Source of the DNA: an uncultured Enterobacterales bacterium
GTDB lineage: Bacteria > Myxococcota_A > UBA796 > UBA2385
Direction: 5' to 3'
Length of the DNA: 15,612 bases
Assembly (NCBI GenBank): GCA_964464515.1
Contig: CAYXGP010000201.1
Coordinates: forward strand, 1-15,612
Position 1 is the first letter of the stretch. Each line of letters begins with the position of its first letter. The notes below the pieces were generated by a model. That model searched no databases. It was given only the letters and a program-made list of their open reading frames with translations, and was not told where the DNA came from. Position numbers and translations under genes: made by a program. This document shows positions 14,510 through 15,450 of this stretch, one piece after another.

Positions 14510-15414
14510 GTCCCCTGTTGTTGATCGCGCTGGCCGGTCCGGCGAGCGCTGAGGACTGTGAGGCCCTCGACGCCGCTCGCCTGCAGGAGCTGGTCGCCGA
14601 GAGTCGCGACGCGCTGTTCAGCGAGGACCTGGAGCGGTTCGACGCCGTGGGCCTGACGCTCGCGGTCGACGTGCCCTGCATGGACGACGTCGTCTCGGCA
14701 GAGACCTGGGCCGACTACCTGGTGACGCTCTCGATCCTGGCCTACTCGACCAAGGGCGACTGGCAGTCGCCGCTGGAGAGCGCCCTGCGGGCGGATCCCG
14801 CGGTGGATCGCGTAGTGGGAGAGGGCCATCAGGTCCGATCCTGGACGCCGCCGCAGATCGCCGACGACGTGAGCGGTCGCACCCCCACCGGGATCGACGT
14901 CTACCTCGACGGCCGACTCGTGCGGTACCTGACGGTGCTGCGCGGCCCCCACCTGATCCAGGCCCGCCAGGGCGAGGCGCTGCGCTCGGCCTTCGTCGAC
15001 GCCGACGGCGCCGACGCCTGGGACGCGGTGCTCGCGGCCCCTGTCGAGCCGCCGCTGGTGGCCGTCGCGGAGTCTCCGGTGGAGACCGAAGAGCCTCCCA
15101 ACGCCGACACCGCCCCGCCGCCGAAGCCCGAGAAGGTGCCCATGTTTCAGCGCGATGGCTGGTGGATGCTGGGGAGTGGCGTGCTCGTCGCGGGCGGCGG
15201 GACCACGCTGGCGCTCGTCGCCTACAACAACGGCACGAGCGGCGTGCGGTCTACCGCGCACTGGACCGGGCTGGTGGCCCTGAACACCACAGGGTGGACC
15301 GCCACGGTCGTGGGCGCCGGCCTCATGGGGTGGGGGACGACGCGTCTGGTGAAGACGCGAAGGGTCTCCGTGGCGCTCGCCCCGGGCGGCCTCGTGGTCG
15401 GGGGGACGCTGTGA
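14506..15414 (+). CDS. Hypothetical exported/membrane protein (about 302 aa) with a signal peptide and two C-terminal hydrophobic helices
   Basis: GTG 14506 overlaps the kinase TGA as GTGA and yields MSPLLLIALAGPASA|EDCE. An alternative start is ATG 14467. Two C-terminal TM-like segments (WWMLGSGVLVAGGGTTLALVAY; LVALNTTGWTATVVGAGLMGW). The stop lies inside the first copy of the 17-bp tandem repeat. Confidence 0.5.
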
Positions 15415-15450
15415 TTGGGGGGACGCTGTGATTGGGGGGACGCTGTGATC
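15400..15450 (+). repeat. 17-bp tandem repeat ggggggacgctgtgatt x3 (third copy ends ...gatc), each copy carrying a G6 tract, a GTG and a TGA
   Basis: Read directly. Because 17 is not divisible by 3, the three TGA triplets (15412, 15429, 15446) fall in all three reading frames. Confidence 0.9.

Follow-up and report, generated by a model that had tools for sequence, protein, structure and literature searches.

A tandem array of 17-bp GTGA junctions between two orphan genes of an uncultured GC-rich bacterium, probably a local triplication of a translational-coupling site

The DNA considered here (the window) is a stretch of 15,612 nucleotides from an uncultured bacterium, contig CAYXGP010000201.1 of assembly GCA_964464515.1, with a G+C content of 69.9%, and the element in question is an array of 17-bp tandem units at the junction of two genes near the end of this stretch. 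The genes around the array are co-oriented. A serine/threonine protein kinase gene (12749-14509, plus strand; Pfam Pkinase, 1.8e-47) is the first of the run and is followed by a gene for an orphan protein of 302 amino acids (P0004; 14506-15414, plus strand), then by the array, and then by a gene for a second orphan protein of 278 amino acids, of which the window holds the 5' part (15445-15612, plus strand). The full downstream gene lies at 10928-11764 of L001, a JGI contig of 47.5 kb that spans the array, and it is followed by a convergent T2SSF-like gene. The G+C content at third codon positions is 0.91 in the upstream open reading frame (ORF) and 0.87 in the downstream one, which is the coding signature of this genome.

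Tandem Repeats Finder (TRF) places the array at 15400-15455, with a period of 17, 3.3 copies, 97% matches and a score of 105. Its units consist of GGGGGGACGCTGTGAT and a last base that is T, T and C in copies 1, 2 and 3, respectively. All copies are on the plus strand: copy 1 (15400-15416) reads GGGGGGACGCTGTGATT, copy 2 (15417-15433) has the same letters, copy 3 (15434-15450) reads GGGGGGACGCTGTGATC, with C rather than T as its final base, and a partial fourth copy, GGGGG, follows at 15451-15455. When up to three mismatches are allowed, the unit matches the window at the three array sites only, and three matches were reached in none of 200 dinucleotide-preserving shuffles (mean 0.05). TRF, direct reading and the shuffles therefore agree with the initial annotation, made from the sequence alone, that three head-to-tail 17-bp copies with G6 tracts lie at a gene junction. 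The same annotation had proposed looking for the 17-mer elsewhere as a possible REP-like (repetitive extragenic palindromic) element, and this search gave nothing: no further copy with up to four mismatches was found in 25.4 kb of the same contig, and exact-pattern scans for GGGGGGACGCTGTGATYGGGGG returned zero matches in metagenome, genome and viral contig collections, which do not contain the source contigs and therefore bear on other organisms and are silent on this organism's own genome.

A period that is not a multiple of three is uncommon for a well-conserved array. All window arrays scoring at least 42 in TRF have periods divisible by three, as is expected inside genes, except the 17-bp array, which is at a gene boundary; the scores of the four remaining non-triplet arrays do not exceed 41. 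Non-triplet arrays of comparable quality (period of at least 7, at least 2.5 copies, at least 90% matches) are also rare in 1.31 Mb of other fetched loci, where eight were found, two of them on this contig.

Each copy of the unit has the same internal layout, with a G6 tract, the letters ACGCT, and then GTGA, in which a GTG start and a TGA stop overlap by 4 nt (a -4 overlap; 15411-15414, 15428-15431 and 15445-15448), the G6 tract ending 5 nt ahead of the GTG in every case. The TGA of copy 1 (15412-15414) is the stop of the upstream gene, which ends ...GLVVGGTL* and overlaps the GTG at 15411, so that the upstream ORF does end in copy 1, at 15414, as had been claimed. Copy 2 holds a GTG at 15428 and a TGA at 15429-15431. 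The GTG of copy 3 (15445; TGA at 15446-15448) is the called start of the 278-aa gene in both the JGI and the ENA gene calls, and opens VIGGRDTARFAALAMLLPGC (VIGGRDTARFAALAMLLPGCLWFES).... Pairing of the G6 tract with the anti-Shine-Dalgarno (anti-SD) tail of 16S rRNA is predicted at -9.3 to -9.4 kcal/mol, which is among the five strongest values of 19 contig starts, and another gene of the contig (at 6894 of L005) also has GGGGGG before its start. The G6 tract is therefore best described as SD-like, a putative SD sequence, and the array reads as three copies of a complete junction composed of putative SD, 5 nt and GTGA.

Two very short ORFs result from this arrangement, each of six codons and chained to one another by GTGA overlaps. 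Mini-ORF 1 (15411-15431, plus strand) reads GTG ATT GGG GGG ACG CTG TGA, or VIGGTL*, and its start overlaps the upstream stop whilst its stop overlaps the next GTG; mini-ORF 2 (15428-15448, plus strand) also encodes VIGGTL*, with a stop that overlaps the downstream gene's GTG. Because each 21-nt mini-ORF shares 4 nt with the next ORF, the period is 17 nt (2 mod 3), and each successive TGA is consequently shifted by one frame, giving stops at 15412, 15429 and 15446, one per frame. The initial annotation was correct in reporting TGA in all three frames, but the "hard stop for any frame" that it read into them as a function is a by-product of the 17-nt period, 21 minus 4. With three copies, the upstream and downstream genes also come to share a frame with one TGA between them, and readthrough of the TGA at 15412-15414 would fuse both proteins via the linker LGGRCDWGDAVIGG. 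The three-frame stops and the shared gene frame come arithmetically from chaining -4 overlaps and are not selected features.

Little else was found at the junction. Consensus scans of 15000-15612 gave no promoter-like or plus-strand terminator-like sites, although the promoter type of the host may not be covered by them, the predicted RNA fold of 15370-15500 is no better than that of shuffled sequences (z = +1.05), and the window has no Rfam match at the gathering threshold. A ribosomal frameshift at the G tract was rejected, as the zero-frame reading GTC GGG GGG ACG forms no X XXY YYZ heptamer.

Searching with the upstream protein recovered this locus from several public assemblies: L001, L002 (a JGI contig of a second sample), L005 and L006 (ENA re-assemblies of SAMN10231912 and SAMN10231911, respectively, both of which span the array), and L007 (a Logan contig of run SRR8062322). 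The literature yielded no match to the sample and run accessions. Three copies with G6 tracts are present in four of the four assemblies that span the array (the window, L001, L005 and L006), which come from two samples, in a comparison of consensus assemblies, a kind of sequence that cannot show minority variants. Two contigs end inside the array, the Logan contig at 15429 and a JGI contig at 15418. The longest word repeated within the array is 33 nt, and any k of at least 34 resolves it; a graph with k = 31 must branch with a contig end at 15429, the very base at which the Logan contig stops, and a graph with k = 21 predicts an end at 15419, the JGI contig being one base short of this. At least one of the two contig ends inside the array is thus an assembler effect. 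Since k of at least 34 resolves the array and four assemblies from two samples agree, the array is real, and the available assemblies show no variation in it.

Across the locus, the window differs from all other assemblies by a single base, at 15558, and because of this difference it is counted as yet another assembly. The window has G where the others have C, so that residue 38 of the downstream protein is Trp in place of Cys; the end of the ENA contig L006, at 15559, adjoins this position.

The array is bounded by an 11-nt near-repeat, GTG(G/A)TCGGGGG. Its left arm (15394-15404, plus strand; GTGGTCGGGGG) and its right arm (15445-15455, plus strand; GTGATCGGGGG), the latter taking in the GGGGG of the partial fourth copy, agree at 10 of 11 positions, and a repeat search extends the array to 15394. 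Copy 1 is preceded by GTGGTC, the later junctions read GTGATT, GTGATT and GTGATC, and GGGGG follows each. A single-copy sequence, ...GTGGTCGGGGGGACGCT GTGATCGGGGGCAGAG..., would hold two such 11-mers, 10/11 identical and 17 nt apart, which make a typical substrate for slipped-strand duplication.

On these observations, the array is quite probably a 17-bp segment spanning a translational-coupling junction that has recently been triplicated in place, in tandem, and this change appears nearly neutral to selection. Replication slippage or unequal exchange between the 11-nt motifs would be the most likely cause. The ancestor would have had one copy, in which the gene for the upstream membrane protein overlapped that for the secreted protein or lipoprotein downstream as GTGA, with a G6 tract 5 nt ahead of the GTG, and two duplication events plus one C/T substitution would yield the present sequence. 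When one copy was simulated, the spacing between the genes was -4 nt and both proteins were identical to those observed, and with 2, 3, 4 and 5 copies the spacing became +13, +30, +47 and +64 nt, respectively, again with both proteins unchanged. Duplication is tolerated with no change to the proteins because the unit carries its own SD, stop and start.

The neighbouring junction, between the kinase gene and the 302-aa gene, shows the same GTGA architecture with a -4 overlap (14506-14509) as this presumed ancestor. There the kinase TGA at 14507-14509 overlaps the GTG at 14506 of the next gene (ccGTGAgt, 14504-14511), and in L005 the two called genes share 4 nt; this junction is without a strong SD sequence (-3.9 kcal/mol). 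The array resembles known NTGA junctions with -4 overlaps (Huber et al., 2019, PMC6728339; Huber et al., 2023, PMC10666635; PMC12548453) in having GTGA with an SD-like tract at 5 nt in each copy, and in lying between co-oriented genes, between which the consensus scans gave no promoter or terminator signal, and next to a junction that is also GTGA. It differs from them in that three such junctions are in tandem, and in that the real genes are 30 nt apart and linked only via two 6-codon mini-ORFs. As a product of microhomology-mediated tandem duplication, the array is also easily accommodated, with near-perfect copies bounded by a 10/11-nt direct near-repeat at unit spacing and other near-perfect repeats nearby (21 bp at 14185-14232, and 20 bp at 20611-20659 of L001); there is no essential difference, and it is unusual only in that its unit is a complete SD-start-stop junction. 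The array is, in other words, an ordinary short tandem duplication of the variable-number tandem repeat (VNTR) type that happens to be a duplicated coupling junction.

If the junction is coupled, ribosomes that end at 15412-15414 would restart at the overlapping GTG and translate mini-ORF 1, and reinitiation on mini-ORF 2 and then on the downstream gene would follow by successive rounds of termination and reinitiation. The mini-ORFs may in this way relay ribosomes to the downstream gene. NTGA overlaps of -4 nt are the commonest spacing and support tight termination-reinitiation coupling (PMC6728339; PMC12548453), and in the six gene pairs that were tested, coupling all but disappeared with a spacer of about 20 nt (PMC10666635). 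The relay would keep a coupling, probably a weakened one, that a plain 30-nt spacer might lose, and de novo starts on the SD of copy 3 may also feed the downstream gene.

Several points weigh against a neutral triplication of a coupled junction. No single-copy or two-copy allele was found, and the ancestral state is therefore inferred. Nor was an orthologous junction found, as the flanking proteins are orphans, a metagenome scan gave no relatives, and the relatives reached through the gene ProB have no synteny with the locus. The internal junctions read ATT and the last ATC, so at least one substitution is needed in addition to two duplications. The neutrality of the duplication is an assumption, and both a working SD role for G6 and translation of the mini-ORFs are predictions from the DNA sequence. 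Lastly, Tian and Salis saw no loss of coupling at spacings of up to +25 nt (reviewed in PMC12548453), and because the published effects of spacing on coupling disagree, the relay may be unnecessary.

The initial annotation had instead suggested phase-variation-like switching, and the corresponding explanation is that of a contingency locus, at which frequent slippage of the 17-bp unit or of a G6 tract would shift the distance from stop to start and so vary the expression of a downstream surface lipoprotein within the population. In favour of this, near-perfect tandem units that contain homopolymer tracts can mutate in principle, the product of the downstream gene has the look of an exported protein, two of the contigs terminate within the array, and the spacing, which can affect coupling (PMC10666635), would vary with copy number through -4, +13, +30 and +47 nt. 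However, no simulated length change inactivates either ORF. With one to five copies, or with one G added to or removed from any tract, both ORFs stayed intact and the 278-aa ORF was always present; a G gained or lost in tract 1 added 6 or 11 residues to the upstream protein, which still ended IGGTL*, and changes in tracts 2 or 3 altered only the mini-ORFs. As every simulated change leaves both ORFs intact, there is no frame-based on/off switch. The copy-number and G-length comparison that had been put forward as a check gives no sign of switching at the level of consensus assemblies, with three copies and G6 in all four spanning assemblies of the two samples, and the contig ends lose weight because the Logan end is the exact break of a k = 31 graph and the JGI end is one base off the k = 21 prediction. 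Three copies and G6 are short for hypermutable tracts. A contingency locus is accordingly considered unlikely.

G6 is, moreover, a common feature of this genome. Runs of at least six G or C number 30 in the 25.4 kb, or about 1.2 per kb, including three G9 runs, and are identical across assemblies; G9 runs inside called genes likewise show no variation. These G9/C9 homopolymers, which are longer than the G6 tracts, are at 7668-7676 and 12412-12420 of the window and at 13742-13750 of L005. One G9 lies inside a called gene (11800-12648) as GGG GGG GGG, and one C9 is CCC CCC CCC, codons 18-20 of a long (737-aa) GSDH reading, upstream of the JGI start call. Judged by length, the G9/C9 runs would be better candidates for slippage than G6, and no variation is seen in them among the assemblies. 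Simple-sequence contingency loci have in common with the array short head-to-tail repeats and G tracts beside a gene for an exported protein; here there are only three units and G6, a length that is not unusual in this genome, no gene is turned off, and no variation is seen among the assemblies.

A quantitative rather than an on/off effect can also be envisaged, and tuning of downstream translation by rare copy-number variants is a weak possibility. In its fuller form, that of a copy-number "rheostat", each SD-GTGA unit would add one reinitiation step, and slippage would govern how much of the exported protein is made downstream relative to the membrane protein upstream, with no damage to either, through minority alleles in the population. 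This is unlikely. Were it true, it would be a minimal, locally generated counterpart of the VNTRs made up of mycobacterial interspersed repetitive units (MIRUs). Irrespective of the rheostat, MIRU arrays are the closest known analogue of the array. In the MIRU-VNTR of the senX3-regX3 region in the Mycobacterium tuberculosis complex, tandem units lie between two genes that are co-transcribed there, and each unit carries a small ORF with a -4 nt coupling to its neighbour, an arrangement considered to keep expression of the adjacent gene largely unaffected, so that inserting or duplicating a unit does little to the flanking genes (PMC4213456; PMC12548453, citing Supply et al., 1997). The 77- and 53-bp MIRU units and the 17-bp unit are all 2 mod 3 in length, as a chain of -4 overlaps requires. 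MIRUs, however, are 40-100 bp long, dispersed at many loci, apparently mobile and polymorphic between strains, whereas the unit here is 17 bp, derives from a local junction, was found nowhere else in the DNA scanned and shows no polymorphism in the available assemblies. The array has the chained small ORFs with overlapping starts and stops that mark a MIRU array, and it has no dispersed family in the 25.4 kb and the scanned collections; it would work in the manner of a MIRU array without belonging to that family.

It is very improbable that the G tracts act as a G-quadruplex, in which four tracts in the mRNA sense (G6, G6, G6 and G5) mask the ribosome-binding site or pause polymerases and so regulate the downstream gene. 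There are indeed four tracts of at least five G, where a single-copy junction would hold two, and the mean G4Hunter score of 1.68 over 15400-15455 is the second highest of any 56-nt window in the 25.4 kb. The loops, however, are 11 nt long, outside the 1-7 nt of the canonical motif (tracts of at least three G), a score of 1.79 is reached elsewhere on the contig, at 19818, such values being unexceptional at 70% GC, and the same tracts are already explained as SD copies. Bacterial RNA quadruplexes are, in addition, reported to be largely unfolded or depleted.

A dispersed repetitive element, either a REP/BIME-like (bacterial interspersed mosaic element) or MIRU-like mobile unit, or else a protein-binding array such as iterons or an operator, is more doubtful still. 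The array is a short tandem intergenic unit, and MIRUs share its logic of coupled ORFs (PMC12548453), but the unit has no other copy in the 25.4 kb at up to four mismatches and no exact match in the scanned collections, it is non-palindromic and without an inverted repeat, unlike REP/BIME elements, its fold is no better than chance (z = +1.05), and no replication or regulator gene is adjacent. An iteron or operator array was also rejected in its own right, the units being contiguous and no Rep or regulator gene being nearby. Equally hard to credit is an assembly or sequencing artefact, with a true copy number of one or some other value inflated by the assembler: two contigs do break inside the array, but with a longest repeated word of 33 nt it is spanned unambiguously by k of at least 34 or by any single read, and the same three-copy sequence is given by the JGI assembly, by both ENA re-assemblies and by the assembly of the window, which is one single-nucleotide difference away.

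Of the two flanking proteins, the upstream one carries a signal-like sequence at its N-terminus, and its C-terminal third is hydrophobic and rich in Gly. The 3' end of its gene contains a 22-nt direct repeat (15318-15339 and 15387-15408, 82% identity, 69 nt apart) that encodes GLMGWGT and GLVVGGT, respectively, a pattern suggestive of an older duplication, internal to the protein, of its Gly-rich C-terminal segment. The downstream protein begins MIGGRDTARFAALAMLLPGC, which resembles a signal peptide, with a charged n-region, an 8-residue hydrophobic core and a lipobox-like LPGC. The lipobox consensus is [LVI][ASTVI][GAS]C, and the Pro at -2 of LPGC falls outside it. The initial annotation, which had the GTG of copy 3 opening a lipoprotein-like ORF, is therefore upheld by both sets of gene calls as to the start, whilst the identification of the product as a lipoprotein is only partly supported by its sequence, the Pro at -2 being atypical.

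Neither flanking protein gave a Pfam match, and in a homologue search of 5.8 billion proteins both matched only themselves, except for one homologue of the upstream protein, P0002, with 33% identity over the N-terminal half. At the locus of P0002 (L003), the gene is joined by a TGATG (-1) junction to an unrelated gene of 705 aa, and because the neighbour and the junction are different, the ancestral state cannot be read from it. A two-sequence profile of P0004 and P0002 run against metagenome contigs gave 420 pattern matches, none of which was confirmed. Relatives were also reached via the ProB gene, 6.6 kb downstream, the best matches having 59-63% identity and belonging to metagenome-assembled genomes (MAGs) with inconsistent phylum labels. 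The ProB-linked MAG loci contain no copy of the junction genes or of most neighbours and show no synteny, and the only cross-matches, in L042 and L015, are to the kinase domain.

Other tandem repeats lie near the array. The C-terminal tail of the kinase contains in-frame 15-bp units repeated about 6-8 times at 13978-14100 (score 120) and a 21-bp unit repeated 2.3 times at 14185-14247 (100% identity, score 96), which indicate frequent duplication of the slippage type in this region. A second near-perfect non-triplet repeat, with a 20-bp unit (TTCATCGCGTCCCGCGCAGC) in 2.5-2.8 copies, is at 20611-20665 of L001, about 9.7 kb downstream of the array; it starts in the convergent spacer between a thiolase gene and a DUF5818 gene and enters the called 3' end of the latter by a few bases. 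A far larger non-triplet array was seen in an unrelated MAG locus reached via ProB (L015, 19220-19329), with a 13-bp unit (CGCCGCAAGGGGT) repeated 8.5 times with 93% matches. Elsewhere in the window, at 7724-10168 on the minus strand, is a gene for an 814-aa protein that matches domains of the eukaryotic major vault protein (Pfam MVP_shoulder 2.7e-16, Vault_3 2.4e-07, Vault repeat 3.5e-04), and which on these matches appears to be a bacterial MVP-like gene in an uncultured lineage of 70% GC.

The array serves as a worked example of how a motif flagged for its three-frame stops and G tracts may prove to be a duplicated -4 overlap junction, and since it is such a junction, every feature described in the initial annotation can be explained without regulation. 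A further lesson is the way in which an operon can tolerate a tandem duplication of non-triplet length when the unit brings its own SD, start and stop. Additionally, with one, two or three chained GTGA junctions, it offers a natural construct for asking whether very short relay ORFs pass ribosomes on, a question that bears on the dispute over coupling and distance (PMC10666635 versus the studies reviewed in PMC12548453).

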